Assembly (NCBI GenBank): GCA_028712565.1
Contig: JAQTPW010000002.1
Coordinates: 35,601-99,600 of the forward strand
DNA length: 64,000 bases
Source of the DNA: Minisyncoccota bacterium
Lineage (GTDB): Bacteria > Patescibacteriota > Minisyncoccia > Minisyncoccales > JAQTPW01
Direction of reading: 5' to 3'
Below, piece after piece: positions 1 through 64,000 of this stretch. Within the stretch, counting starts at the first letter, position 1; every line of letters begins with the position of its first letter. The position numbers were made by a program, and so were the translations under genes. The notes under the pieces were generated by a model that made no database searches, was not told the DNA's origin, and saw only the letters and a list, made by a program, of their open reading frames with translations.

Positions 1-515
1 ATTAGCAGTGCCGGAAGGAATAAAGCAATTCCAAAAAAAATAGAAGCTAATCTTTCAAGTAAGCAAACAAAACAAGCCCCCAAATTAGTTACGCCGCACC
101 CGGTGCAGGAAAAATCTACACTTGTAACTTCGCCATTACCAACTATCACATCTTCTCCATAAATTTTGCATATTGCACCGCCGGAGCCATCGCAACAATA
201 ATAATCCGGATGGTCGTCTATGGTATATTTTAAGGAGACGCCCTTTGCCACATTTAGGCATGCCGTTACACAATTGCCAGTACTCCATTCTCCAGAGCTT
301 TCGCTTTGTCTTGAAATGGATTTGCACTCCGGTGATTCCGGAGGCGGAGTCCCAGGGCAAGAATAACTATTCGCAGTCCCTCCCCATCCATCCTCACAGC
401 CGAGGGGTGGATCAAACTGTGCTTCTGCGATTCCGTTATTTGATAAAACAGGGAATACGAATACCCCTAAGATTATAAGCGAGAAAAATAAAAATTTTTT
501 GGAATTTTTAAGCAT
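1..515 (-). CDS. Cys-rich secreted protein with pilin-like hydrophobic C-terminal segment (3' end cut by window edge)
   Basis: Not in the supplied ORF track, because it has no stop inside the window. My translation from the ATG at 515-513 gives MLKNSKKFLFFSLIILGVFVFPVLSNNGIAEA (signal peptide), then a Cys-rich region (..GCEDGW..SYSCPG..ECKS..GNCVTAC..YYCCDGSGGAICK..FSCTGCG..), then LGACFVCLLERLASIFFGIALFLPALL. This is the same layout as the C-terminus of 17928-19685. The listed ORFs 136-360(-) and 173-478(+) are other frames of this region. Confidence 0.6.
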   Translation of the reverse strand, partial: MLKNSKKFLFFSLIILGVFVFPVLSNNGIAEAQFDPPLGCEDGWGGTANSYSCPGTPPPESPECKSISRQSESSGEWSTGNCVTACLNVAKGVSLKYTIDDHPDYYCCDGSGGAICKIYGEDVIVGNGEVTSVDFSCTGCGVTNLGACFVCLLERLASIFFGIALFLPALL

Positions 516-10830: not shown

Positions 10831-12352
10831 AATTTTCTTTGACTCTGTACATTAAAGCTTCGGCTAAGTGGTCAAAAGAAATATTTTCACAAGACGATAA
10901 ATCAGCTATAGTTCTGGCTACTTTTAAAACTCTATGATATCCTCTGGCTGAAATTTTCCCAGAATCAACGTATTTTCTCATTAAGTCTTCAGATTTTAAA
11001 TCAATTTTGCAGTATTTTTTAATTTGGGGAATTCCCATTTCAGAATTTGTCAAAATTTTTTCATTTTTAAATCTTTCCATTTGAGCCCTTCTTGCCGATT
11101 CTACTCTTTCTTTTATTTTCTGGCTGGAATTTTCTTCGTCGGGAGAAGTTAACTTTTCGTATTTTAAGGGAGGCACATCGATAAATAAATCCATTCTGTC
11201 CATTAAGGGCCCGGAAAGCTTTCTTCTATACATATATATTTGAGAAGGCGTGCAAGTGCATCTTTTTACCGGGTCGTTTAAATACCCGCAAGGGCAGGGA
11301 TTGGTGGCGGCAATTAACATAAAACGGGCAGGTAAGGTCAAAGAAGTTTTGGCTCTTAAGACCGTAACTTCTCCATCTTCCAAAGGCTGTCTTAAGGATT
11401 CTAAGGCATCTCTATGGAATTCCGGAAATTCGTCCAAAAATAAAACTCCTCTGTGCGCCAAAGTAATTTCTCCGGGCCTTGGCGGATTTCCTCCGCCGAT
11501 TAAAGCAACTTCAGAAGAGGTATGATGGGGCGAGCGGAATGGCCGCAAATTAATCAAGGGCTTGCCTTTTGGCAAGAATCCGGAAACGCTATAAATTTTT
11601 GTAACCTCCAAAGATTCTTCAAAGGACAAAGATGGCAAAATAGAAATTGCAGATTTTGCCAAAAGGGATTTGCCTGTGCCCGGAGGCCCGGTAAATAATA
11701 AATTATGCGAGCCGGCCGCTGAAACTTCCAAAGCCCTTTTTGCATATTCCTGGCCTTTTACATAACTCAAATCAATTTGGTATTCGGGTTTTTCCAAAAA
11801 ATCTTCAGTTTTTGTTTCAAAAGGCGCAATATTTAATTTTCCCTCCAAATAAAAAACAGTTTCTTTTAAATTTCCAACAGGAATTACTTTTATTCCTTTA
11901 ATTAAAGCGGCTTCTGGGGCATTTTCTTTTGGCAAAATAATTTCTTCAAAATTTTTTTCTTTGGCGGACAAAGCAAAAGAGAGCGCGCCTTTTACGGGCC
12001 TCAAGTTTCCGTCCAAGGCAAGTTCTCCCAGAAACATTCTTTTTTCAAAGCCAAATTTTGTCTGTTTTGAAGCTGCCAAATACGCCAAAGCAATGGGCAA
12101 ATCATATAACGCCCCTTCTTTTTTAAGGTCAGCAGGAGCTAAAGAAACCAAAACTCTGACTGGCGTGCTGTGCGGAGATTTAAATCCAGAGCTTTTAATT
12201 GCAGAACTTACTCTTTCTCTGGCTTCCTGGACAGCTTTGTCCGGGAGGCCGACAATGGCAAAAACCGGCAGGCCGTAAGAAACATCGGTTTCCACTTCAA
12301 TTATTTGAGCGTCAAGGCCGACAACAGCTGCAGAGAAAACTTTTGAAGGCAT
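10829..12352 (-). CDS. comM: YifB/ComM family Mg-chelatase-like ATPase
   Basis: Lon-like N-terminal domain. Walker A GPPGTGKS, then LFLDEFPEF and a C-terminal ChlI-like region. Full-length at 507 aa. Confidence 0.9.
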   Translation of the reverse strand: MPSKVFSAAVVGLDAQIIEVETDVSYGLPVFAIVGLPDKAVQEARERVSSAIKSSGFKSPHSTPVRVLVSLAPADLKKEGALYDLPIALAYLAASKQTKFGFEKRMFLGELALDGNLRPVKGALSFALSAKEKNFEEIILPKENAPEAALIKGIKVIPVGNLKETVFYLEGKLNIAPFETKTEDFLEKPEYQIDLSYVKGQEYAKRALEVSAAGSHNLLFTGPPGTGKSLLAKSAISILPSLSFEESLEVTKIYSVSGFLPKGKPLINLRPFRSPHHTSSEVALIGGGNPPRPGEITLAHRGVLFLDEFPEFHRDALESLRQPLEDGEVTVLRAKTSLTLPARFMLIAATNPCPCGYLNDPVKRCTCTPSQIYMYRRKLSGPLMDRMDLFIDVPPLKYEKLTSPDEENSSQKIKERVESARRAQMERFKNEKILTNSEMGIPQIKKYCKIDLKSEDLMRKYVDSGKISARGYHRVLKVARTIADLSSCENISFDHLAEALMYRVKEN

Positions 12353-12388
12353 TCTTTAATTTTACCAAATTAAAGAGTGATTTCAAAC

Positions 12389-12426
12389 AAAATCCCGTCC
12401 TTCGACAAAGCTCAGGACGGGATTTT
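12389..12426 (-). terminator. hairpin terminator with conserved loop ttcgacaaagctca
   Basis: 12-bp stem aaaatcccgtcc / ggacgggatttt with A and T runs flanking. It lies between the stop at 12447 and the start at 12352 on the minus strand. Confidence 0.6.
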
Positions 12427-12446
12427 GTTTAGAGATAAAAGCAGTT

Positions 12447-12818
12447 TTATTTGCCGCATTTTATGCAAAAGCGGGATTCAGGAGAAACTTTCAAACGGTC
12501 TGAAGGAATTTCCTTTTTGCATTTTTCGCAAATTCCGTAATTTCCTTTTTTGATTTTTTCCAAAGCCAAATTTACATTTTTTAACCTGATTTCCAAACTG
12601 TGTTCTACCGGCAAAAGCGAGCCGTATTGCTCGACTTCGTCAGCGGCAATCTCCAAACTTCCGCTTCCTGATTCGTTTCCGTCCAGCCGCGGATATTTTG
12701 TGTCCCAGTCGCCGGACAATTTTTCATCTTTTGTGGCGAATTTTTTCAGTTGCTCTTCCAAGCCGGCTTTTTCTTTTTCTAATTTTTTCTGCAAATCCAA
12801 TACGATTTTTTTGTCCAT
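12447..12818 (-). CDS. DksA/TraR-family C4 zinc-finger protein
   Basis: Coiled-coil N-terminus and the C-terminal motif CEKCKKEI...RFCIKC. Confidence 0.75.
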   Translation of the reverse strand: MDKKIVLDLQKKLEKEKAGLEEQLKKFATKDEKLSGDWDTKYPRLDGNESGSGSLEIAADEVEQYGSLLPVEHSLEIRLKNVNLALEKIKKGNYGICEKCKKEIPSDRLKVSPESRFCIKCGK

Positions 12819-12832
12819 TTTTTTAATTTAAT

Positions 12833-13165
12833 TTACTTAATAAAAAGAAATCTAATATAGCCGAATAAAACGCTAAAAATTATCAAAGATATCAAAAAGA
12901 TTATAATTAAAGTGAAAAAACGGGCGACAATTTTTCCAGCCAGAGTTTGCTTTCTGCCGCGGGGTTTTATGATTTCGGCGGGCTTTTCGAGCGGCTTTTG
13001 GGGCGGAAGTTTTTCCCTTTCTTCTTTTGCCCAGATTCTTTCCAGGAATTTTTTCCGGCTCAGCTCTTCGGATTCCTGCGTCTTTTCCAGCTCGTTTTTT
13101 ATTTTTTCTGCCCGGTTTTCTTTTTGTTCCGCATTTTCAGTTTTTATTTCTTTTAAATTCGCCAT
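12833..13165 (-). CDS. hypothetical tail-anchored charged protein
   Basis: E/K-rich N-terminus and a single C-terminal TM helix. Confidence 0.4.
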   Translation of the reverse strand: MANLKEIKTENAEQKENRAEKIKNELEKTQESEELSRKKFLERIWAKEEREKLPPQKPLEKPAEIIKPRGRKQTLAGKIVARFFTLIIIFLISLIIFSVLFGYIRFLFIK

Positions 13166-13167
13166 TT

Positions 13168-14535
13168 TTAAGCTATATTTTTTAAATTTTCTTCAGTTTC
13201 TTTTATTTTCGCCAGCGTTTCCTGAAAAGCCGCATCCAGTTTTTTTAATTGGAAGTTCAAATTATTTTTTTCTGTTTCTTTTTGCCATCTTTGCCGCTCT
13301 AATTCCCGCCTTTGCTTTTCTATTTCCCATCTTTCTTTTTCAATTTCCCTTTTTTCTTTCGGCAAAGCGGATTCTTTTTCTCTTTCCTCAATTTTAATTA
13401 TTTTTTCTTCAATCACTTTTTCCCTTTCGGAAATATCCTGCAGGTCGTATATTGCCCGGTCTTTTTTAGCTAAAATCTTTTCTCTTTCCAGTTCCGAATA
13501 CTTTTTTTGGCTGTTTAAATCCAAAAGGGCTTCTTTCAATTTGGCCTCCTTTTCTATTTTTAAAGCATTCTCTTTTTTAGCCAAAAAAACTTTTTCCTGC
13601 TCGGAAATCTTTTTATATTCGGGCTCTATTCTCCCCAGCTCTTTTCCGATTTTTTCAATCCGGTCTTCTGCCTGCCATCTTTCTTTTTCAATTTTTTCCC
13701 TTTCTTTTTCGGTTTTCTCCCTTTCTTTTTCAATTTTTCTTCTGGCGCGGGTTAAAACAGTTTTTCTTTCCATTTCGTCAATTTCTTTTTTCTTTATTTC
13801 CGCTCCCTCCTCTTTTTTCAAAATTTCTGCGAGAGCGACCTTCAGCTGTTCCAATTCTTTATTGAGATTGCCAATTTTTTCCTGCAGGGGAGATTTTTTT
13901 GTTATTATTTCTGCCAATTTCCTTTCAATTCTTTCGCTTTCCGGCAAATTCTTTTCTTCTTCAGCCAATCTTGCCTCTTCTTCTTTTTTCATTTCTGCAA
14001 TTCGCTTTGCCTCTTCCTTTTCTTTATTTTTCTTAATCTCTTCATCTTGCTTGATCTCTCCGCTTTTCTTAATTTCCGTAATTTCCTTAGTTTCCGCAAC
14101 TTCCTCGGTTTCTTTAATTTCCGGGTTTTTCTTAATCTCTTCCAAGCGTTTTGCTTCCTCAATTTTTTTTGCCTCTTCAATGCGCATTACTTCTTCTTTT
14201 CTTCTTTCCTGCCTTCTTCTTTCAATTTCTTCAGCAATTCTTTCGTCCTCCTGCTTGTCTCTTACTCTTTTTAACGCGTCATCTATTTTTTCCTGCCCTG
14301 AAGTTTTAATTGTTTCCTCGATTGTCGGAGCGCCTGATGTTTTTTCTTGAGATATTTTTTTTGGAACATTTTCTTTCGGCGCTTCGGGCGGTTTTGCGGC
14401 CACTGTTTTTTTCTTTTGCTCTCCTTTCAGTTTTGAAATTTCTTTTTGCATAGTTTTTATTTCTTCTCTACGCAAAAAGCCATTTCCAGATGTTATTGGT
14501 TTTTGAGGAGATGTATTTGGTTCTTTTTCGGGCAT
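13168..14535 (-). CDS. E/K-rich coiled-coil protein, unknown function
   Basis: 455 aa dominated by E, K and R heptad-like runs (EKEREKIEKERW...). The long antisense ORFs are mirror artefacts. Confidence 0.5.
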   Translation of the reverse strand: MPEKEPNTSPQKPITSGNGFLRREEIKTMQKEISKLKGEQKKKTVAAKPPEAPKENVPKKISQEKTSGAPTIEETIKTSGQEKIDDALKRVRDKQEDERIAEEIERRRQERRKEEVMRIEEAKKIEEAKRLEEIKKNPEIKETEEVAETKEITEIKKSGEIKQDEEIKKNKEKEEAKRIAEMKKEEEARLAEEEKNLPESERIERKLAEIITKKSPLQEKIGNLNKELEQLKVALAEILKKEEGAEIKKKEIDEMERKTVLTRARRKIEKEREKTEKEREKIEKERWQAEDRIEKIGKELGRIEPEYKKISEQEKVFLAKKENALKIEKEAKLKEALLDLNSQKKYSELEREKILAKKDRAIYDLQDISEREKVIEEKIIKIEEREKESALPKEKREIEKERWEIEKQRRELERQRWQKETEKNNLNFQLKKLDAAFQETLAKIKETEENLKNIA

Positions 14536-14539
14536 ATTT

Positions 14540-16651
14540 TTAAGATTTTTTGTTATCTTGTGATAGTGCCTCTTTCAAAGAAAGATTTATTCTGCCCTGT
14601 TCGTCAATTGAAATAACTTTTACGGGAATTATCTGGCCTATTTTTACAATATCTTCAACTTTGTTTACCCGGTAATCGGCTAATTGGGAAATATGGACCA
14701 ATCCTTCTTGGCCGGGCAAAATTTCAACAAAAGCTCCAAAAGCCAAAATTCTTTTTACTTTTCCCTGAAAGGTTTCTCCAACCTTCACTTCTCTGGTAAT
14801 ATTTTCTATCCAAGACAGGGCTTTTTTTGTCGCGTCTTCGCTTTCTCCGGTGATGAAAATTTTTCCCGAATCTTCAATGTCAATCGCCACTCCGCACTCG
14901 TCAATAATTTCATTGATGACTTTTCCGCCGGGGCCTATCACTTCTCTTATTTTATCAGGATTTATCTGAATTGTTATAATTCTCGGCGCATATTGGGAAA
15001 GATTTTCTCTGGGTTTTAAAATCACCTTTTCCATTTTATCCAAAATTTCAAGACGGGCTTTCTTTCCCCGTTCCAATGTTTCTTTTATAATTTTTTCATC
15101 AATGCCTTTTATTTTTACGTCCATTTGTATTGCAGTAATCCCTTCTTTGGTTCCGGCTATTTTAAAATCCATGCCGCCGTGATGGTCTTCCGGGCCTTGG
15201 ATGTCAGTTAAAATTTTGTAATTTCCTTTTTCGTCAGTTACTATTCCCATTGCAATTCCAGCCGCAGGTCTTTTTATCGGGACTCCGGCATCCATTAAAG
15301 CCAAAGACGAAGCGGAAATTGAAGCCATAGAAGTTGACCCATTTGAAGAAAGAATTTCTGTGACTACTCTTATGGTATAAGGAAAATCTTCCACGGAAGG
15401 TATCTGGGGCAATAGCGCTTTTTCAGCCAGCATGCCATGGCCAATTTCTCTTCTTCCGGGGCCTCTCATTGGTTTTATTTCTCCTGCAGAGTAGGGCGGA
15501 AAATTATAATGGTGCATAAATCTTTTTTTGCCGACAATTTCCATCCCTTCTAAAATCTGCTGGTCTCCGGGAGCTCCCAAGGTCAAAATTGAAAGGGCTT
15601 TTGTCTGGCCTCGGCAAAACAAGCCCGAGCCGTGAGTTCTAGGCAATAACCCAACTTCGCAGGAAATTTCTCTTATCTCGTCAATTTTTCTGTCATCCGG
15701 GCGCCTCTCATTTTTTAAAATATTTTCCTGAAGCAGTTTTTCAATGGATTTTTCAAAAAACTTTTGCGCGTATTTTACTTTTTCCGGATATTTTTCGCTG
15801 ACAAAAAGAATAAGGTCTTTTTCCAATAAATCAGTAGATTTTTGCCTTTTTGATTTATCTGCCTGAAAAAAAGCAGCTTCTAGCTTTTCCCCCAAAAATT
15901 CTGACATTTCTTTTTCCAATTCCAAATCTTTCTGCGCGGTTATTTTTATTTTTTCCTTGCCGGCCTCTTTTATTATCTGCTTTTGGAAATCCAAAATATT
16001 TTTTAAATCTCCCTTTGCAAATTCTATGCCTTCCAAAATTGATTTTTCATCCGCTTCTTCAAAACCGCCTTCCATCATATTGATTAATATTTTCTCGCCT
16101 TCTGAAACTGCGGAAATAATAAAATCAACAGGAGAATTTCCCCGTTCTTCATAAGAAGGGTTTAAAATAAATTTATTTTCTGCCTTTCCGATTCTGGCCG
16201 CAGCCAGAGGCCCCTGCCAAGGGATGTCAGAAAGCGAGAGCGCCAAAGATGCAGAAATTAATCCCACCAAATCCGGATCGTTTTGCGCATCCCAGGAAAG
16301 AACAGTGATGATTAACTGGACTTCCCGCGGCAAATCTTGGGGAAACAAGGGCCTTATTGCCCGGTCAATCAACCTGGCATTTAAAATCGCCTCATCTGAT
16401 GGGCGAGATTCTCTTTTTATGTATTTTGGCCCCCTAATTTTTCCTGCGGCATAATATCTTTCTTCGTAATCTACGGTTAAAGGGAAAAAATCTCCAAGGC
16501 CCCGGTCTTCTTTTGACATAACGCAGGTTGCCAAAACCTCAGTGTCGCCATAGCTGACCAAAACATCGGCATTCGCCTGTTCAGCCAAATGCCGGATTTG
16601 CACTTCTAAATTTTTTCCGCCGATTTCTAAATTATATTTTTTGCTTTCCAT
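14540..16651 (-). CDS. pnp: polyribonucleotide nucleotidyltransferase (PNPase)
   Basis: Two RNase PH domains plus KH and S1 (GQEGLVHISQL). 703 aa. Confidence 0.95.
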   Translation of the reverse strand: MESKKYNLEIGGKNLEVQIRHLAEQANADVLVSYGDTEVLATCVMSKEDRGLGDFFPLTVDYEERYYAAGKIRGPKYIKRESRPSDEAILNARLIDRAIRPLFPQDLPREVQLIITVLSWDAQNDPDLVGLISASLALSLSDIPWQGPLAAARIGKAENKFILNPSYEERGNSPVDFIISAVSEGEKILINMMEGGFEEADEKSILEGIEFAKGDLKNILDFQKQIIKEAGKEKIKITAQKDLELEKEMSEFLGEKLEAAFFQADKSKRQKSTDLLEKDLILFVSEKYPEKVKYAQKFFEKSIEKLLQENILKNERRPDDRKIDEIREISCEVGLLPRTHGSGLFCRGQTKALSILTLGAPGDQQILEGMEIVGKKRFMHHYNFPPYSAGEIKPMRGPGRREIGHGMLAEKALLPQIPSVEDFPYTIRVVTEILSSNGSTSMASISASSLALMDAGVPIKRPAAGIAMGIVTDEKGNYKILTDIQGPEDHHGGMDFKIAGTKEGITAIQMDVKIKGIDEKIIKETLERGKKARLEILDKMEKVILKPRENLSQYAPRIITIQINPDKIREVIGPGGKVINEIIDECGVAIDIEDSGKIFITGESEDATKKALSWIENITREVKVGETFQGKVKRILAFGAFVEILPGQEGLVHISQLADYRVNKVEDIVKIGQIIPVKVISIDEQGRINLSLKEALSQDNKKS

Positions 16652-19785: not shown

Positions 19786-19860
19786 TGGTGCCCCTGCCAG
19801 GATTTGAACCTGGACTTCAGCGTCCGAAGCGCTACGCGATATCCATTTCACTACAGGGGC
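19786..19860 (-). tRNA. tRNA-Arg(TCG)
   Basis: Acceptor GCCCCTG/CAGGGGC, anticodon loop CT-TCG-GA, T arm CCAGG-TTCAAAT-CCTGG. CCA is encoded. Confidence 0.8.
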
Positions 19861-20001
19861 GCAGGGGATGATTTATTTAATTTTATCAAACAGATCGCCC
19901 TTCGACAAGCTCAGGCACCCCGAATCGTATATCGAAGGATGGAAAAAACAATGCTTTTGAGATAGTATTAAATATAATACTGATCTACGAATCGAATCCG
20001 A

Positions 20002-22327: not shown

Positions 22328-22475
22328 TCCACTAGCGGCTAATCACTAGTGGCTAGTCGCTAATCACTAGTGGCTAAATAATGTAACGGGGGCTGGTGTA
22401 ACGGTAACCCCAGTAGCAGAAAGCTGTGCTTTCGCTACGGGGCAAAGCATGTACGTTTACCTCATCCAAATTTAC

Positions 22476-37534: not shown

Positions 37535-37709
37535 GAGTATATTTACGACTTCGCTCGAACTCATTTTATCAGAAATTCCTGAAAAATCCAGTGCTCGCCG
37601 CCCGACTGGCGGCGAGCAGGAAACACCCTCGGCTCGCGGGCGAAAAATCCTTCCCCCAGCCCCTTTTCATTTTTCGCCCGCTCGCCGGAAAAATTTTTGA
37701 GGGAAAAAA
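37535..37709 (+). repeat. inverted repeat X, left copy
   Basis: 37535-37641 is the exact reverse complement of 40743-40849 (107 bp by hand alignment). The inner part is diverged but ends in a shared 27-mer. It contains the GC-rich hairpin ctcgccgcc-cgact-ggcggcgag. Confidence 0.85.
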
Positions 37710-39125
37710 TTATTTAGAAATTGTAATGTAGGTATTACTTTGACTCAAGAGTAAATTTTTAACCTCAATACCCCAACTTGATAAAATATTTACATCTCCT
37801 ATTTGAATTTTGTATTTAGCCGGTCCAATTTTAAATCTCTGAAAAAGTCCAACTGGTATGTTCCAATCAAACACTTTCTGGGAAACCAAAACATCTTTTG
37901 CGATAAGATATCTCGGCGTTAAATCGCTAGTTGGATAATATTGATAATCAATTTTTGGCTCAATATCTTTTCCGTCTTGCTGATAAGCGTACAAATAAAT
38001 ATTAACTTTTTTATTTTCTAATCCTAATTGATCCCATTTAATAGAGTATATGCCGCCTTCTCTTAATTGGTTTTCTGGTTGCAAAGCCTCTAATTTTGTT
38101 GGCTCAATAAATTTAAAAGTAGACACTGTTTGATTAAGGGTTTCTTCCATTTTTTTAGAATCTGACCCGACGGTAATTCCAATCATAAACAAATAATTTC
38201 CTTTTGCTACAAAATTATCAATAGCTTTGCCACCATTTACGCAGACAGCATTTATCCCATCAATTTCGCCTATTTTTACTTCCTTGGTTGCGCATTGCTT
38301 AGTAAAAAACGACGGCATATATTTATTTAACCATTCTTTGGTAGGAAAATTTTCCGAATTATCGTAAACTGCGATGTTTATTCCGTCCGGCAGAATCCGC
38401 ACTAGCTTGAGACAAGTGTACTCCTCCGTTCCTTGACACCACCAATAAGGCTGGCTTTCGATTTTTACCTCACTATTTTGCGGATATTTTATTTCAAAGC
38501 CATATTCCCCATTCTTGTAGGTCTGCCAAGTAACAGTTTCCCCGTCTGAAACAACCTTAAAGTAATTGGGTGATTCTTTTGTATCTTCAATCCGCCCCTT
38601 TTTATCATGGCCGGTAATAATAACTTTAAAATTATCCCCCGATTGCCAAACTGGATATGCGTTAAAAAGATCACTAGGAATGGACCAATTATAGACCCCG
38701 TCTTTGGCAGAAAAATTATCAATGATCTGGCCGTAGCAAACCTCTGTTTTAGCCATTTCAGAAGGTAAAAAGATATTTTCCATGCTGGTTGTAGAATATC
38801 TATTAAGACAATCATAATTAACTATCTGAATTCCTATTTTATCTATGCCGGTTGATTGCCATTGAATTGGATACGTGTTTCCAACTTTTAATTCGTTTTC
38901 AACTGAAGAAACCGCCAATGCGGGTTGCTTCCAGTTTTTATCGTGAAAATAAGCTATACCACTGAGTATAGAAATAACCACAATAACAATGATTATAGCG
39001 GGAAGCCAGTAACGAACGGGGATTTGGGCGTGCGTTACGCCCTCTCCTTTTCTTCTAGAAATCATCCATATTATAAAACCCCCGAGTAAAAATACTACTA
39101 AAAGAGTGATTGTTGAAGATTCCAT
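37710..39125 (-). CDS. N-terminally anchored surface protein with repeated beta-rich modules
   Basis: TM helix at the N-terminus. Two similar modules (VGNTYPIQWQSTG..DGVYNWSIPSDLF..GDNFKVIITG and EGGIYSIKWDQLG..VFDWNIPVGLF..AKYKIQIGD). Confidence 0.55.
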   Translation of the reverse strand: MESSTITLLVVFLLGGFIIWMISRRKGEGVTHAQIPVRYWLPAIIIVIVVISILSGIAYFHDKNWKQPALAVSSVENELKVGNTYPIQWQSTGIDKIGIQIVNYDCLNRYSTTSMENIFLPSEMAKTEVCYGQIIDNFSAKDGVYNWSIPSDLFNAYPVWQSGDNFKVIITGHDKKGRIEDTKESPNYFKVVSDGETVTWQTYKNGEYGFEIKYPQNSEVKIESQPYWWCQGTEEYTCLKLVRILPDGINIAVYDNSENFPTKEWLNKYMPSFFTKQCATKEVKIGEIDGINAVCVNGGKAIDNFVAKGNYLFMIGITVGSDSKKMEETLNQTVSTFKFIEPTKLEALQPENQLREGGIYSIKWDQLGLENKKVNIYLYAYQQDGKDIEPKIDYQYYPTSDLTPRYLIAKDVLVSQKVFDWNIPVGLFQRFKIGPAKYKIQIGDVNILSSWGIEVKNLLLSQSNTYITISK

Positions 39126-40666: not shown

Positions 40667-40673
40667 GGTTTCA

Positions 40674-40849
40674 TTTTTTTCCTCAAAAATTTTTCCGGCG
40701 AGCGGGCAAAAAATGGAAGGGTTTTAGGGGAGGAAATTTTTTGCCCGCGAGCCGAGGGTGTTTCCTGCTCGCCGCCAGTCGGGCGGCGAGCACTGGATTT
40801 TTCAGGAATTTCTGATAAAATGAGTTCGAGCGAAGTCGTAAATATACTC
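40674..40849 (-). repeat. inverted repeat X, right copy
   Basis: Reverse complement of 37535-37709. Confidence 0.85.
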
Positions 40850-41150: not shown

Positions 41151-42701
41151 ATGCAAAAATTCTTTTTATACGCCCGCAAGTCCACCGATGTGGAAGACAA
41201 ACAAGTTAGGTCTATTGAAGACCAAATATCAGAATTGCGCGCCTTTGCTCAAAAAGAAAATTTAGAAATTACTGATATTTTTATCGAAAAACAATCCGCC
41301 AAAGTTCCGGGCAGGCCAATTTTTAACAAAATGATAAAACGAATTGAAGGGGGCGAGGCAGACGGAATTTTGGCGTGGCACCCCGATAGATTGGCGCGCA
41401 ATTCGGTGGACGGTGGAAAAATTATCTATCTCATTGATTGCGGGCGTATTTCTACCCTGAAATTCCCGACTTTTTGGTTTGAACCAACGCCGCAAGGAAA
41501 ATTCATGTTGAATATTGCTTTTGGGCAAAGCAAATACTATGTTGATAATTTGAGCGAGAATACAAAAAGAGGTTTGCGCCAAAAAGTTAGACGAGGCGAA
41601 TATCCGGGTTTCGCGCCGATTGGATATTTAAACGATTCAAGAATAAAAAGCGTGGTTATGGACAAAAAGAAATCTCAAATTATCAAAAAGGCATTTGAAC
41701 TCTACGCCGAAAACAATTATCGGCTTGAAGATGTTTCTAACTTTTTGGCGCAACAAGGAATTACTTCGCGAGGCGGAAAAAACCTAAAACGAGACAGAAT
41801 TTCTTTTATCCTTTCCAATCCGTTTTATGTCGGGTTATTCAGATATTCTGGCGAAATACACGAAGGCAAGCATCAGCCAATTATATCAAAGAAAATTTTT
41901 GATAAAGCGCAGGAAATCTTAAAGCAAAGAGGAAGACCGCACCACAAACCTAAAAATGAACCTCAACCATTTTGCGGGGTTTTGAAGTGCGGGAATTGCG
42001 GAATGTCCATCACTGGCGAATACAAGGTTAAAAGACAAAAGAACGGCAACGAGCATTACTACACCTATTACCACTGCACCCACAAATCCAAAACAATCAA
42101 ATGCAAAGAGCCTTGTATTCGCCAAGAGAAATTAGATAAACAAATTTCCTCTTTGCTTCAAAAATTTTCTTTGAAAAAAGCTTGGGCAGAAGAATTAAAT
42201 AAAATGTTGGAAAAAGATAAAACGAAAACCGCCCAATCTTTTACCGCTTTTGTTCAAGGAGCGCAAAACAAAGTTAAAGAAATTTCCATCAAACTTCAGC
42301 GTCTTTTGGACGGCTATTTAGAACAAGATATTGAAAGAGAAATTTATAGAGTAGAAAAAGCAAAACTGCTTTCCGAAAAGAAGTCGCTGGAAGAAAAAAT
42401 AACCTCTCTTGAACAAAAGCGGATTGGCTGGATCGAACCGATGAAAGAATGGATAAAAGAAGCAGAAAACCTTCCTAAAATCGCTCAAAACGACAACCTT
42501 TTTGCTAAAAAGGTCGCCTGCCGAAATATTTTCGGCTCGAACCTCATTTTACTAAACCGCGAGGCGCGCCAGAGCGCGCCGAGCGGAACGGATTTCCCTC
42601 TTAAAACGCACTGGGCGGCGCTTTGCGCCGCCCGTGAAATGGCTTCCAAAAAGCCGAAAAGTTTTATCGTGGAGCGGGTAATGGGAATCGAACCCACATA
42701 A
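41151..42701 (+). CDS. large serine recombinase (resolvase domain + recombinase domain + zinc ribbon + coiled coil)
   Basis: YARKSTDVEDKQVRSIEDQ (catalytic Ser motif), HPDRLARN, PFYVGLFRY, and CGVLKCGNCG...YYTYYHCTH. The last codons (..MGIEPT*) read through the T-arm of tRNA-Gly, so the native C-terminus is uncertain. Confidence 0.85.
   Translation: MQKFFLYARKSTDVEDKQVRSIEDQISELRAFAQKENLEITDIFIEKQSAKVPGRPIFNKMIKRIEGGEADGILAWHPDRLARNSVDGGKIIYLIDCGRISTLKFPTFWFEPTPQGKFMLNIAFGQSKYYVDNLSENTKRGLRQKVRRGEYPGFAPIGYLNDSRIKSVVMDKKKSQIIKKAFELYAENNYRLEDVSNFLAQQGITSRGGKNLKRDRISFILSNPFYVGLFRYSGEIHEGKHQPIISKKIFDKAQEILKQRGRPHHKPKNEPQPFCGVLKCGNCGMSITGEYKVKRQKNGNEHYYTYYHCTHKSKTIKCKEPCIRQEKLDKQISSLLQKFSLKKAWAEELNKMLEKDKTKTAQSFTAFVQGAQNKVKEISIKLQRLLDGYLEQDIEREIYRVEKAKLLSEKKSLEEKITSLEQKRIGWIEPMKEWIKEAENLPKIAQNDNLFAKKVACRNIFGSNLILLNREARQSAPSGTDFPLKTHWAALCAAREMASKKPKSFIVERVMGIEPT
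42538..42674 (+). repeat. inverted repeat Y, right copy (inside the recombinase 3' coding region)
   Basis: Identical to the reverse complement of 40847-40983. Contains the GC palindromes ggcgcgc-caga-gcgcgcc and gggcggcgc-ttt-gcgccgccc. Confidence 0.9.
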
Positions 42702-42743: not shown

Positions 42744-42804
42744 CTTCGCCAGCCGTAGCTGGCTTCGGCGGGAAATGACCGCCAAGGCTAGCGAAGGCTG
42801 GATG

Positions 42805-42876
42805 TCGGGGGAGAGGGAGTTGAACCCTCAATCTTACGCACCCAAAGCGCACATGTTGCCATTACACCATCCCCCG
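42805..42876 (-). tRNA. tRNA-Pro(TGG)
   Basis: Acceptor CGGGGGA/TCCCCCG, anticodon loop TT-TGG-GT, T arm GAGGG-TTCAACT-CCCTC. Confidence 0.75.
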
Positions 42877-52727: not shown

Positions 52728-53032
52728 AACTAAATTTTAACAAAATTAAAAATTTTTTCAGAAAATTGCCGCGGTTTTTGGCTAAAAAATCATTTTTTAC
52801 TTCAATTGCCTTAATCTTTTTAGCTTTGCTTGTAGGAGGAGCTGTTTTTTACCAATATAATTTTTTGCCCCAAAAAATTACTCCTGTTTTGAATGATATT
52901 GTTTCCAAGTTTCAGGAAAAAAAATACCAAGAAGTGTTATCTGTTTGGCAGGAAATGGAAAGCAGGTTTAACGAAGCTGGTTTAAAACAGTATCCAAATA
53001 TTTTTGCAGCCCCTGCAGCAGAAATTGACTAA
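52724..53032 (+). CDS. hypothetical anchored protein, last gene of the pilus cluster
   Basis: N-terminal TM helix. Overlapping start with pilO. Confidence 0.4.
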   Translation: MKLNFNKIKNFFRKLPRFLAKKSFFTSIALIFLALLVGGAVFYQYNFLPQKITPVLNDIVSKFQEKKYQEVLSVWQEMESRFNEAGLKQYPNIFAAPAAEID

Positions 53033-53084
53033 GAGCTAATTTTAGCTATAATTAAACTCGTTCTCTTGCCCCTGGCCCCTGTAG

Positions 53085-53149
53085 CCCCTCACCTAGAAAT
53101 CTTCAATTTCATTAATTGTCGTTGCCTACTAAGGATTTCTGGGTGAGGG
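53085..53149 (+). repeat. 65-bp TIR hairpin insert in the tRNA-Arg(TCT) leader
   Basis: TIRs cccctcacctagaaatc / gatttctgggtgaggg. Flanked by the direct repeat gcccctgtag (53075-53084 and tRNA nt 1-10 at 53150-53159). Confidence 0.75.
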
Positions 53150-53221
53150 GCCCCTGTAGTTCAATGGATAGAACACGGGTTTTCTAAACCCGATATGGAA
53201 GTTCGATTCTTCCCAGGGGCA
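53150..53221 (+). tRNA. tRNA-Arg(TCT)
   Basis: Acceptor GCCCCTG/CAGGGGC, anticodon stem CGGGT/ACCCG, loop TT-TCT-AA, T arm GGAAG-TTCGATT-CTTCC. Confidence 0.8.
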
Positions 53222-56071: not shown

Positions 56072-56150
56072 AAGGCGCCTTGAAAACAAGGGAAAAATTT
56101 GATAACATTTTAGATTAGATTTGTCTATAATGAGTATGTAGCCTCTGCAG

Positions 56151-56219
56151 CCCCTCACCCAGAAATCTTCAACTTTGTTAGGAATTTTCCGCTATTCGCT
56201 AAGGATTTCTGGGTGAGGG
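56151..56219 (+). repeat. 69-bp TIR hairpin insert in the tRNA-Arg(CCT) leader
   Basis: Perfect 17-bp stem cccctcacccagaaatc / gatttctgggtgagggg (the last g is tRNA nt 1). The upstream degenerate copy gcctctgcag matches the tRNA 5' end at 8/10. Confidence 0.75.
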
Positions 56220-56292
56220 GCCCCTGTAGTTCAACGGATAGAACAATCCCGTCCTAAGGGAGAAATTGGGGGTTCAATTCCTCCCAGGGGCA
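56220..56292 (+). tRNA. tRNA-Arg(CCT)
   Basis: Same acceptor and D arm as tRNA-Arg(TCT). Anticodon loop GT-CCT-AA. Confidence 0.75.
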
Positions 56293-56295
56293 CTC

Positions 56296-56366: not shown

Positions 56367-56534
56367 CCGAGTCAAGCTCGGTTTCAGCCGAGTACAAAAT
56401 GAAAGCAGGCAAGTTAGACTTGCCACAGATATTTTTCTCTGGCGAGGTATGGTGGGATGCCAGAGCGGTTGAACCCCGAAAAAATTTCCGTAAATTTAAA
56501 CGGGGCAAGTGGGCCGCTTTATCCCGTATAATGC

Positions 56535-62867: not shown

Positions 62868-63573
62868 CTGCGCTTCGACTAAGTCGAAGCTACGGCGGGC
62901 ATGCCCGCAAATTATGCCTCGTGCGCCGTAGCCCTAGCGAAGTTTTGCCCCAGTCCAGAGTTGGTTATAACTTTAATGGACTGGCGATATATATCCATAC
63001 TAAAGGAAAAGGTCGCTAGAATCAAGAATTTTTATAGAACTAAGCTTTGAAGACGTTGAGTTGTTGACAAATCCTTTCAAAATGATAAAAGGATCTTGCG
63101 GAGGGAAATCCTCCGAGCCCTAATTCGGAACGAGCTAGGCCAGCTCACGCTTTTGCAGAAATACTGCAGATAAGTATGCAGAAGCTAAGTGCTCTGCAGG
63201 CGCACTCCGATTAGGGCTTTTTTCTTTGAAAACAAATTTTTAAATTTCAAAAGTTCTGTGCAACATGTTGGTACCGAATTGCCTTTGCATCAAAATTACT
63301 AGTCCGATAGCCCCGCACGGTGTCCAAGGATTTTCAATAAGATGATCTCTTGTTATCTTAAGAGATTGCATTTCTATTCTATTACCATGCAGTAAAGTGT
63401 AACCAAAACCAAAGGACTAAACCAAGAAAAATTACAACCTCAAAAACTTTAACCGGAATAGCCGTGTATTTAAGGAGTGACTTAAAGATATTCATATTAA
63501 TTTAATATCTTTTAATGGTAACGAATTTGATTCGTCAAGGAGGGACAATTTGCCTGCTCCGGCAATTAAGTGT

Positions 63574-63613: not shown

Positions 63614-63743
63614 TACCCAGTAGAAAAAGAGAGCTTTTACAGAAACAGCGTCTAACGCTGTTTTGTATTTAAGATATAAACAAGTGGCAAGTCTGACTTG
63701 CCTACCTCGCAAACTCGTTTCTTATGAACCGAGTTTGACTCGG

Positions 63744-63815
63744 TGCCGTGGAATGGAATCGAACCATCGACCCTTGCTTTTTCAGAGCAATGCTCTACCA
63801 CTGAGCTACCACGGC
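63744..63815 (-). tRNA. tRNA-Phe(GAA)
   Basis: Acceptor GCCGTGG/CCACGGC, D arm GCTCAGTGGTAGAGC, anticodon stem TTGCT/AGCAA, loop CT-GAA-AA. Confidence 0.8.
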
Positions 63816-63979
63816 TCTCCTACGCTTCGATTTTCATCGAAGCTTCGGCGGAGCAAGTAGAATTATATAAATAAACTTGCCCTTCCGAAGCTCAAACGAA
63901 GTGCAGAGCGAAGGAGGGAGCTACCACGGCGTGCATATATTAAAATTTTAACCGATTATAACTTCGCAATCAATATGAG

Positions 63980-64000
63980 TGGACGACATAGGATTCGAAC
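63980..64000 (-). tRNA. tRNA 3' fragment (gene continues beyond the window)
   Basis: The reverse complement reads gttcgaatcc-tatgtcgtcca: a T-loop, T-stem and acceptor 3' strand. Identity cannot be determined. Confidence 0.5.

Follow-up and report, generated by a model that had tools for sequence, protein, structure and literature searches.

Two tRNA-Arg genes of a Patescibacteria bacterium are each preceded by a short palindromic hairpin that ends exactly at position -1 of the tRNA and directly abuts, at its other end, a second copy of tRNA nucleotides 1-10. The reading that we favor, and hold with about even confidence, is that both hairpins are MITE-like palindromic insertions at the 5' foot of the D-arm, accompanied by a tRNA-regenerating duplication of roughly 10 bp, co-transcribed with the gene and removed as leader. 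The window, by which we mean the whole 64-kb stretch of DNA that was analyzed, comes from a MAG of a small-genome bacterium of the Patescibacteria (CPR; "Pacebacteria"). It contains 15 tRNA genes according to ARAGORN and Rfam, and the neighborhood of both Arg loci encodes type IV pilus parts, GreA, the HtrA protease, a short IF-2 and RbfA. A first-pass annotation of this DNA had placed a 65-bp hairpin insert and a second one of similar length, each with a duplicate of nt 1-10, at these two genes, and all of its coordinates were verified. The features of the loci are collected in Table 1, where the displaced copy of the tRNA 5' end is called the orphan.

Table 1. Positions of the tRNA loci in the window, together with their inserts, orphan copies and predicted promoter elements.
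Feature	Position	Strand	Remarks
Promoter-like site TTGACT-16-TATAAT, tRNA-Arg(TCT) locus	53025..53052	+	11/12 matches; upstream of orphan copy
TATAAT box, TCT locus	53047-53052	+	
Extra partial copy of tRNA nt 1-7, GCCCCTG	53068..53074	+	directly 5' of orphan copy
Orphan copy of tRNA-Arg nt 1-10, GCCCCTGTAG	53075..53084	+	10/10
65-nt palindromic insert	53085..53149	+	5' arm 53085-53101, variable center, 3' arm 53134-53149
Intact tRNA-Arg(TCT)	53150..53221	+	Rfam tRNA, 72.9 bits
Promoter-like site ATAACA-18-TATAAT, tRNA-Arg(CCT) locus	56102..56131	+	10/12; region alignable with L204, L205
TATAAT box, CCT locus	56126-56131	+	
Degenerate orphan copy of tRNA nt 1-10, GCCTCTGCAG	56141..56150	+	8/10
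69-nt palindromic insert	56151..56219	+	5' arm 56151-56167, 3' arm 56204-56219
Intact tRNA-Arg(CCT)	56220..56293	+	ARAGORN, Rfam
tRNA-Arg(TCG)	19786..19860	-	nt 1-11 same, D-arm different, no insert; uninserted comparison site
Orphan copy of tRNA-Phe nt 1-13, GCCGTGGTAGCTC	63918..63930	-	13/13
102-nt rod-like imperfect palindrome	63816..63917	-	between orphan and tRNA-Phe
Intact tRNA-Phe(GAA)	63742..63815	-	ARAGORN, Rfam

The two inserts share their arms and little else. Their 17-nt arms read CCCCTCACC[T/C]AGAAATC and GATTTCTGGGTGAGGG, and CCCCTCACCYAGAAATC is likewise arm sequence. Complementarity between the arms is 16/17 in the TCT copy, where a U-G pair occurs, and 17/17 in the CCT copy; the lone T/C difference between the loci, already seen in the first-pass annotation, gives U-G versus C-G on the transcribed strand, so that pairing is kept. 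Once the flanking G and GC and an inner CUU/AAG are counted, the stems extend to 18-20 bp, and that of the TCT insert reaches outward to G53084 and to tRNA nt 1-2. The conserved arm blocks comprise 22 nt on the 5' side and 21 nt on the 3' side, with a single difference in 43 positions between the copies. Identity drops to about 48%, with indels, over the central 22-26 nt, so that the centers are essentially unrelated by sequence comparison. At the TCT locus the full order is [nt 1-7][nt 1-10][hairpin][tRNA]. A search with the arm 16-mer, allowing at most 3 mismatches, returned 4 sites in the window, all of which are the arms themselves, compared with a mean of 0.38 in shuffled sequence (0/100 shuffles reach 4). 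The hairpins fold with z-scores of -6.6 and -6.8, and by our own estimate a 10/10 match at the fixed abutting position would arise by chance with a probability of about 1e-6.

Both TATAAT boxes that had been noted at the outset turned out to be parts of longer promoter-like sites, which occur only upstream of the orphans and not within either hairpin. The site upstream of tRNA-Arg(TCT) is a promoter-like sequence predicted to drive its transcript. Because these sites lie upstream of the orphans and none lies inside a hairpin, the hairpins are predicted to be part of a transcribed leader of 80-90 nt.

HtrA divergently adjoins tRNA-Arg(CCT), and this synteny is conserved in relatives, which allowed filled and empty sites to be compared. 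Syntenic loci were taken from two sources, JGI metagenomes (L121-L200) and the closest relatives by protein (L201-L205); the sampled relatives span 85 to 46% HtrA identity, 85% being the closest. The TCT site lacks both hairpin and duplicate in L201 (85% HtrA identity), L122 and L123. Likewise, the CCT site lacks both in L202/L203 (85%), L204 (81%) and L121 (73%), and further in L122-125, L129, L143, L192 and L160. One relative, L205 (80% HtrA identity), carries a different 43-nt leader insert at the CCT site. The promoter region of the window aligns with those of L204 and L205, and in this alignment the window's degenerate CCT orphan occupies the place of the tRNA start; relative to L204, the window's CCT locus has about 79 extra nt. 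Because the sampled syntenic relatives are empty and the orphan sits where their tRNA starts, the comparison supports the hairpins being lineage-specific insertions into the former 5' end of the gene rather than a conserved leader. The orthologous loci thus look as an insertion predicts, with empty sites in relatives and no conservation of the hairpin across them, and the conserved-leader structure that the first-pass annotation had offered as its other option falls, as every syntenic relative examined has an empty site. The same polymorphism may also have arisen in the opposite direction, if the hairpin was lost by precise excision in the relatives instead of gained in this lineage.

The insertion could have proceeded as follows. 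The element would be a small non-coding palindrome with terminal inverted repeats of about 20 nt and a variable center, and it would have entered the 5'-terminal part of a tRNA gene after nt 9/10, where the D-arm has its 5' foot. What is recognized would be the D-arm palindrome, and the stagger of the cut would span about 10 bp immediately 5' of it. In every tRNA the D-stem begins with nt 10, so the target duplication of about 10 bp that would accompany insertion copies tRNA nt 1-10. A complete tRNA gene would thereby be rebuilt directly 3' of the element, and all that remains of the old 5' end would be a 10-nt orphan next to the ancestral promoter. With a shorter stagger the start of the tRNA would be lost, a lethal outcome; the repeat would begin at +1 because only duplications that reach back to +1 leave a working gene, and surviving events are those that do so. 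Having no promoter of its own, the element would be transcribed from the ancestral promoter within the 80-90-nt 5' leader, which RNase P would discard by its cut at +1, probably after RNase III cleavage of the 20-bp stem or after refolding. The mobilizing enzyme, the recognition of the D-arm and the processing route are the steps of this scheme that we infer.

The distribution of filled and empty sites within the window bears on what would be recognized. Both filled genes, TCT and CCT, have nt 1-26 in common, a stretch that takes in the D-arm. The tRNA-Arg(TCG) gene had been put forward as an uninserted gene with the same first 10 nt; it is indeed empty, and it shares only nt 1-11 with the other two. 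Because the genes with nt 1-26 in common are filled and the one with nt 1-11 in common is empty, this pattern is more easily reconciled with an element that recognizes the D-arm than with one that recognizes the 10-mer. Since the arms are common, the centers unrelated and the decay of the orphan modest, the two Arg copies are best read as two insertions from a small family, not as an in-place duplication or a single gene conversion. The direct repeats that flank the inserts match at 10/10 and 8/10 over 10 nt for the two Arg copies and extend over 13 nt at tRNA-Phe, which is described below. At Arg and Phe alike, the repeat can be parsed just as well as a 7-bp duplication (nt 3-9) around a palindrome that has GC termini.

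One detail of the centers is left unexplained by a simple model of terminal inverted repeats plus target duplication. The 6 nt that follow the 17-nt 5' arm, TTCAAT in the TCT copy and TTCAAC in the CCT copy, equal tRNA nt 11-16 of the respective gene; they are placed as though the orphan were nt 1-16, split by the arm. We considered whether the center might be a decayed tRNA 5' half, and its alignment scores are no higher than those of shuffled sequence, with the TTCAAY hexamer alone standing out. A tandem duplication of leader plus 5' end was rejected in turn, the sequence upstream of the orphan being unrelated to the insert, as was a fold-back or inverted duplication of tRNA sequence, the arms being tRNA-derived only in GCCCCT/AGGGGC.

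The drifted CCT orphan and the near-invariant arms fit an element whose termini are under constraint and whose interiors are unrelated. With two copies, arm conservation could equally reflect selection at the RNA level, and the main rival to a MITE-like insertion is an acquired functional leader, that is, a cis-acting RNA structure that controls the maturation or abundance of the two AGR-decoding tRNAs. We consider this fairly unlikely. In its variants, RNase P might depend on a prior RNase III cut, or the orphan might compete with the true 5' strand for the acceptor stem. Near-invariant arms beside a drifting center and orphan, with a sole arm change that keeps pairing, are what such a leader calls for, but two sequences amount to no real covariation test. 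The leader would have spread between the paralogues by gene conversion via their common first 26 nt, in keeping with a hairpin found only in the two genes that have nt 1-26 in common; gene conversion would, however, have carried the center too, yet the centers are unrelated. A position within the transcribed leader, ending at -1, also suits a functional role, and conserved structured leaders do exist in the clade, for example the 60-nt spacer of tRNA-Gly. On the other hand, none of the relatives examined has the hairpin, nothing analogous occurs at about 120 other tRNA-Arg loci, and neither a general enrichment of stems abutting +1 nor an Rfam match was found. Specifically, a general rule of stems ending at +1 was tried across 311 tRNAs and rejected, as ends at -1 to +2 are not enriched over other offsets. 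Searching the whole window against Rfam at the gathering threshold returned tRNAs and sub-threshold noise from generic (miRNA-like) hairpins only, and permissive E-value scans around the Arg and Phe loci gave no leader or intron family above noise.

Folding adds one point in favor of a functional leader. In constrained folds, pairing of the orphan with the 3' acceptor strand (conformer B) is favored by 4-5 kcal/mol over the true cloverleaf plus hairpin, mainly because the hairpin acquires the G10-C2 and C-G1 pairs; the orphan is thus predicted to compete effectively for the acceptor stem. Because of this difference in the constrained folds, the orphan copy would not be structurally innocent. 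In the unconstrained MFE fold of the TCT precursor, the acceptor strand is the further copy GCCCCTG at 53068-53074.

A comparable layout occurs at tRNA-Phe, on the other strand of the window, where an exact copy of nt 1-13 is separated from the intact gene by a longer palindrome. The sequence of this palindrome is unrelated to the Arg hairpin and its loop contains TATAAT. As in the Arg loci, the helix is closed by orphan G10 pairing with tRNA C2, and comparison with L204 indicates that the Phe orphan keeps the ancestral spacing to a conserved TATAAT. Toward its 3' end, the Phe insert resembles the tRNA-Arg(CCT) leader of L205 (30 nt at 90% by BLAST; about 43 nt by eye). Because of this homology, leader modules would appear to move between unrelated tRNA genes, always abutting +1. 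By eye, the 3' part of the Phe insert also resembles the leader of the window's tRNA-Gly(GCC).

Exact 5' duplicates of at least 9 nt, beginning at the annotated tRNA start, lie upstream of 8/317 tRNAs in the window and the fetched loci, and downstream of 0/317; the start is taken as +1, or as -1 where ARAGORN begins one base early. These eight are the window's Arg-TCT and Phe genes together with L009, L016, L104 Arg, L104 Val, L113 and L056 Phe. The six outside the window belong to Arg, Val and Phe genes, mostly of Patescibacteria. The duplicates end at nt 9-13, and repeat lengths in the other cases are not uniform, at 9-15 nt. Hence the initial idea of a small element aimed at tRNA-Arg 5' ends holds in part: insertion, terminal inverted repeats and direct repeat stand, and specificity for Arg does not, as Phe and Val genes have such duplicates too.

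Some of the fetched loci, from other Patescibacteria, are more elaborate. In L042, an intact tRNA-Arg(tct) sits on a stem of about 17 bp inside the D-loop of a second tRNA-Arg(tct), and the outer tRNA is canonical once the 109-nt insert is removed. Similar loci were found in L009, L063 and L113, and L118 and L104 hold a 5' fragment and one arm only. 5' fragments occur only upstream and 3' fragments only downstream. Two kinds of neighboring gene, recognized from translated ORF ends, were considered as element-borne and set aside because they look like conserved synteny: Xer-like recombinase genes, which precede L068 and L113, and RmuC, which precedes L009, L072 and L073. Our literature search returned nothing on 5'-regenerating tRNA duplications or on tRNA genes nested in tRNA genes.

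These nested loci suggest a second rival, in which the window's arrangement is a relic of gene replacement or site-specific recombination: the tRNA, or its 5' part, would be incoming, the orphan the remnant of the resident gene, and the hairpin what is left of the element's arms. Integrative elements that bring along part of the tRNA gene they target would be comparable. We rate this as improbable for the Arg hairpins. tRNA-end-anchored repeats are, reportedly since work by Williams in 2002, a hallmark of att duplications at tRNA genes, and at the two Arg loci and at Phe alike the repeat begins at +1 (or -1). The nested loci (L042, with the similar L009, L063 and L113) and the remnants in L118 and L104 would be arrangements of a similar kind, and the placement of 5' fragments upstream and 3' fragments downstream, with no other arrangement, agrees with replacement. 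In the window, by contrast, the two arms do not flank the tRNA but both precede it, no 3' remnant is present, and the tRNA 3' halves of both Arg genes are ordinary and locus-specific. Moreover, the 65 nt encode nothing, no integrase gene lies between or beside the repeats, and independent reduction of two loci to identical arms is implausible.

An intron-like arrangement, in which the tRNA begins at the upstream copy and 75-79 nt are removed, or tolerated as an extra arm at position 9/10, is very unlikely. The MFE folds of all three precursors do pair the upstream copy with the 3' acceptor strand and place the hairpin at the start of the D-arm, but no bacterial splicing system is known to act there, 65 nt is far below the size of a group I intron, and no Rfam intron matches. 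The two 3-nt bulges of the archaeal bulge-helix-bulge are missing from the junction, which forms one continuous helix, the CCT orphan carries C at position 8, where U8 is near-universal, and the downstream copy is already a perfect, complete tRNA.

Assembly artefact or chance is scarcely credible: the source is a MAG, the arms are a unitig-breaking repeat and the contig of a second assembly (L208) ends inside that repeat, but this second assembler recovers an identical TCT sequence, two loci with different centers are involved, and the shuffling statistics speak against chance. This contig, from the Logan assembly of run SRR22315508, reproduces the TCT orphan and hairpin base for base and terminates in the repeated GCCCCTGTA.

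Unfortunately, further copies of the element that a MITE-like insertion implies did not turn up. There is no third copy or solo arm in the 64-kb window (arm 16-mer, at most 3 mismatches), and the two-arm pattern has zero matches in IMG/VR and in JGI metagenomes. BLAST of the hairpins against phage and plasmid collections gave nothing meaningful, and no relatives appeared among the 205 fetched loci; copies of the inverted repeats elsewhere, which a mobile element had led the first reading to look for, are thus lacking from every one of these sources. The hairpin is likewise absent from all 120 loci returned by a genome-collection scan for the tRNA-Arg 5' half. No autonomous parent with the same terminal inverted repeats was found in the window, and no IS-type transposase gene was identified near either Arg locus by a protein-family scan that covers a minority of the window's ORFs. 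A large serine recombinase at 41151-42701 is the one recombinase identified in the window, and it would not produce duplications of this kind. No integrase gene lies between or beside the repeats, with only 65-102 non-coding nt between them. Because no further copy was found in the window or in the searched collections, the mobility of the Arg hairpins is inferred from their anatomy and from the insertion polymorphism, both read from sequence.

Anatomically the Arg inserts correspond to a bacterial MITE; that they belong to this class is not established, with two copies and neither a fixed duplication length nor a parent shown. The terminal inverted repeats lie at the exact ends of the unit, and filled and empty orthologous sites exist; instead of multiple dispersed copies, there are two in 64 kb and zero in the collections searched. 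Bacterial MITEs and palindromic insertion elements include the Correia elements of Neisseria and the Rickettsia palindromic elements. Like these, the Arg hairpins are short non-coding units with terminal inverted repeats, a flanking direct repeat and presence or absence at orthologous sites, and they form a long hairpin that is, here by prediction, co-transcribed with a neighboring gene and cleavable by RNase III. Unlike MITEs, they occur in two copies at one type of site, with no IS parent or transposase known, and their duplication equals tRNA nt 1-10, placing them inside the ancestral gene with the gene left intact.

Two other classes come close. Integrative elements that target tRNA genes use tyrosine integrases, and their att duplication restores the tRNA end. 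The Arg loci resemble them in a repeat anchored at the mature tRNA end and a displaced fragment beside an intact gene. Those elements, however, duplicate the 3' part, measure kilobases and carry an integrase, whereas here the 5' part is duplicated on either side of 65 nt with perfect terminal inverted repeats; the Arg insert is not an att scar with an integrase. REP sequences and REPINs, which RAYT transposases mobilize, are extragenic, number tens to hundreds of copies and are not known to generate duplications. The Arg hairpins share with a REPIN the long hairpin of two conserved inverted arms around a variable spacer, and a GTAG at the 5' foot, which here is tRNA nt 7-10. In contrast to REPINs, there are two copies only, no RAYT gene was identified, and the GTAG foot is the only match. 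The Arg insert is therefore not a REPIN, nor is it a curated leader RNA or an intron.

The casposon of Aciduliprofundum boonei (A. boonei) offers a precedent: 5 bp of its 15-bp target duplication overlap the 3' end of tRNA-Pro, and the T-psi-C palindrome is part of its target (PMC5137440). Both systems have an element with terminal inverted repeats, a duplication that abuts or overlaps a tRNA end, a target with a tRNA-encoded palindrome, and an intact tRNA (PMC5137440). Casposons are large, protein-coding and associated with the 3' end and T-arm, whereas the Arg inserts are 65 nt and associated with the 5' end and D-arm; only 5 bp of the casposon duplication is tRNA, whereas that of the Arg insert is wholly tRNA sequence (PMC5137440). 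Patescibacteria tRNA genes are also known to harbor group I introns, which are self-splicing, hundreds of nucleotides long and located in the anticodon loop (PMC13011429). Here too tRNA genes of Patescibacteria are interrupted in a way that standard annotation handles poorly, but what interrupts them is a hairpin of 65 nt, placed at nt 10 and accompanied by a duplication that regenerates the gene. Because the duplication regenerates the tRNA, the Arg insert needs no splicing.

A wider reading would join the hairpins to the nested loci. Tentatively, and with more doubt than we attach to the MITE-like insertion itself, Patescibacteria may harbor a new class of insertions that are guided by structure and land in tRNA genes, at the foot of the D-arm and of other arms. 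Function would be kept either by a duplication extending back to +1 or by the arrival of a complete replacement tRNA on a long stem; the window's hairpins would be its minimal members. Within such a class, the conserved arms and the competing orphan acceptor strand may have a role at the RNA level in gating the maturation of AGR tRNAs. If this is true, selfish or neutral DNA colonizes essential single-copy tRNA genes of extremely reduced genomes without inactivating them, and the geometry of insertion, a D-stem at nt 10 plus a duplication of about 10 bp, itself rebuilds the gene. It would also explain odd tRNA-flanking fragments in Patescibacteria genomes, and would mean that disrupted or nested genes can go unnoticed when tRNAs are annotated in this group. 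How RNase P and RNase III deal with structured leaders could be tested on natural pre-tRNAs that combine a decoy acceptor strand with a 20-bp hairpin at -1, and the nested tRNA-in-tRNA loci, should they prove general, would represent a gene architecture new to bacteria. While a single pair of hairpins is modest, recurrent function-preserving targeting of tRNA 5' ends together with nested loci would be surprising if both hold up.

Finally, other tRNA genes of the window have unusual 5' flanks. tRNA-Pro(CGG) and tRNA-Ser(CGA) are preceded by weaker tRNA-like 5' fragments, and the Ala-Ser spacer measures 165 nt in the window versus 9 nt in L204. Because of these fragments, the long spacer and the tRNA-Phe layout, the 5' flanks of tRNA genes in this genome are repeatedly remodeled. 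The 60-nt spacer that precedes tRNA-Gly is common to the window, L059 and L010, and by our reading its inner hairpin covaries, with CAGC/GCUG versus CCGC/GCGG.

Directly after the 17-nt 5' arm of each Arg hairpin, the palindromic inserts that end at position -1 of tRNA-Arg(TCT) and tRNA-Arg(CCT), lies a hexamer that reads TTCAAT at the TCT locus (53102-53107) and TTCAAC at the CCT locus (56168-56173). These are nt 11-16 of the adjacent tRNA-Arg in each case, including the locus-specific T/C difference. A simple model of terminal inverted repeats plus a target duplication leaves this identity unexplained. At the uninserted tRNA-Arg(TCG), CCCCTG (tRNA nt 2-7) occupies positions -7 to -2 (within 19861-19870, minus strand) and resembles an extra GCCCCTG at 53068-53074 of the TCT locus; this may be either a footprint or a chance match, whose probability we estimate at about 1.5%.

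Upstream of tRNA-Pro(CGG) and tRNA-Ser(CGA), tRNA-like 5' fragments are followed by hairpins. The tRNA-Pro(CGG) fragment matches nt 1-15 of tRNA-Pro(TGG) at 14 of 15 positions, and GAGCGGTTGAA occurs within the fragment at tRNA-Ser(CGA). The Ala-Ser spacer of the window measures 165 nt, versus 9 nt in L204, a syntenic relative.

In the comparison locus L042, the D-loop (21/22) of one tRNA-Arg(tct) houses a second, intact tRNA-Arg(tct). Arms on both sides of the inner gene form a stem of roughly 17 bp, and the outer gene is canonical by ARAGORN once the 109-nt insert is taken out. The arms, ACCTGCCCGCCA..., are common to L009 and L042 with one compensatory change in L009, where the nested locus has a further outer layer. 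A similar nested arrangement is present in L063 and L113, and no description of this tRNA-inside-tRNA architecture was found in the literature searched.

Small palindromic units were also observed in disrupted tRNA-Arg copies of other Patescibacteria (L113, L104, L072, L118, L073 and L050), where they sit at stem-loop junctions and carry no target duplication. One such unit, a 31-nt double hairpin (TCACCC..GGGTGA TCTACC..GGTATGA), occurs twice in L113, in the D-arm and the T-arm and each time after GTT, and has an analogue in L104. The ACCTGCCYGCC palindrome family occurs alone in L113 and L072 and on either side of a tRNA in L009 and L042.

The window tRNA-Phe and the tRNA-Arg(CCT) of L205, another syntenic relative, share a leader module of roughly 43 nt, ..CCGCCGAAGCTTCGA-loop-TCGAAGCG.AGGAGA, that abuts +1 in both genes (BLAST match of 30 nt at 90%); the sister locus L204 lacks the module. 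A motif judged similar by eye lies directly against +1 of the window tRNA-Gly(GCC). The module begins at approximately the expected start of a TATAAT-driven transcript. The window edge (63976-64000, minus strand) falls within the apparent 3' end of another tRNA, GTTCGAATCC..., which lies upstream of the tRNA-Phe promoter.

The 60-nt spacer preceding tRNA-Gly(TCC), a candidate for a conserved motif of pre-tRNA leaders, folds into a stem in which nt 1-2 of the tRNA take part. It is also conserved in L010 and, over 29 nt at 97%, upstream of tRNA-Gly(GCC) in a distant Parcubacteria MAG, and had no match in Rfam. By our reading of the sequences, its inner hairpin covaries (CAGC/GCUG versus CCGC/GCGG).

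The 3' end of tRNA-Gly(TCC) is overlapped by the end of a large serine recombinase ORF. This gene adjoins a segment of about 3 kb, with three minus-strand ORFs, that is flanked on both sides by an inverted repeat of about 176 bp (165 of 177 aligned positions identical). The region is a candidate for either an invertible segment or an integrated element. Across 12001-16000, AT skew (-0.31) and GC skew (-0.18) are strongly negative compared with the remaining window.

Coordinates of leader motifs, tRNA-like fragments and associated elements
Feature	Location	Strand	Remark
Outer tRNA-Arg(tct)	L042, 5' part from 3724, 3' part from 3854	+	locus oriented to tRNA strand
~43-nt leader module, tRNA-Phe	window 63816-63858	-	
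~43-nt leader module, tRNA-Arg(CCT)	L205 5857-5899		
Similar motif, tRNA-Gly(GCC)	window 62868-62910	-	by eye
~176-bp inverted repeat copies	window 37535-37710 and 40673-40849		
Large serine recombinase gene	window 41151-42701	+	Resolvase + Recombinase + Zn_ribbon_recom
60-nt tRNA-Gly spacer	window 42744-42805	-	
60-nt tRNA-Gly spacer	L059 4984-5045; L010 ~170-230		
tRNA-like 5' fragments and hairpins, tRNA-Pro(CGG)/tRNA-Ser(CGA)	window 22387-22475 and 56442-56533	+
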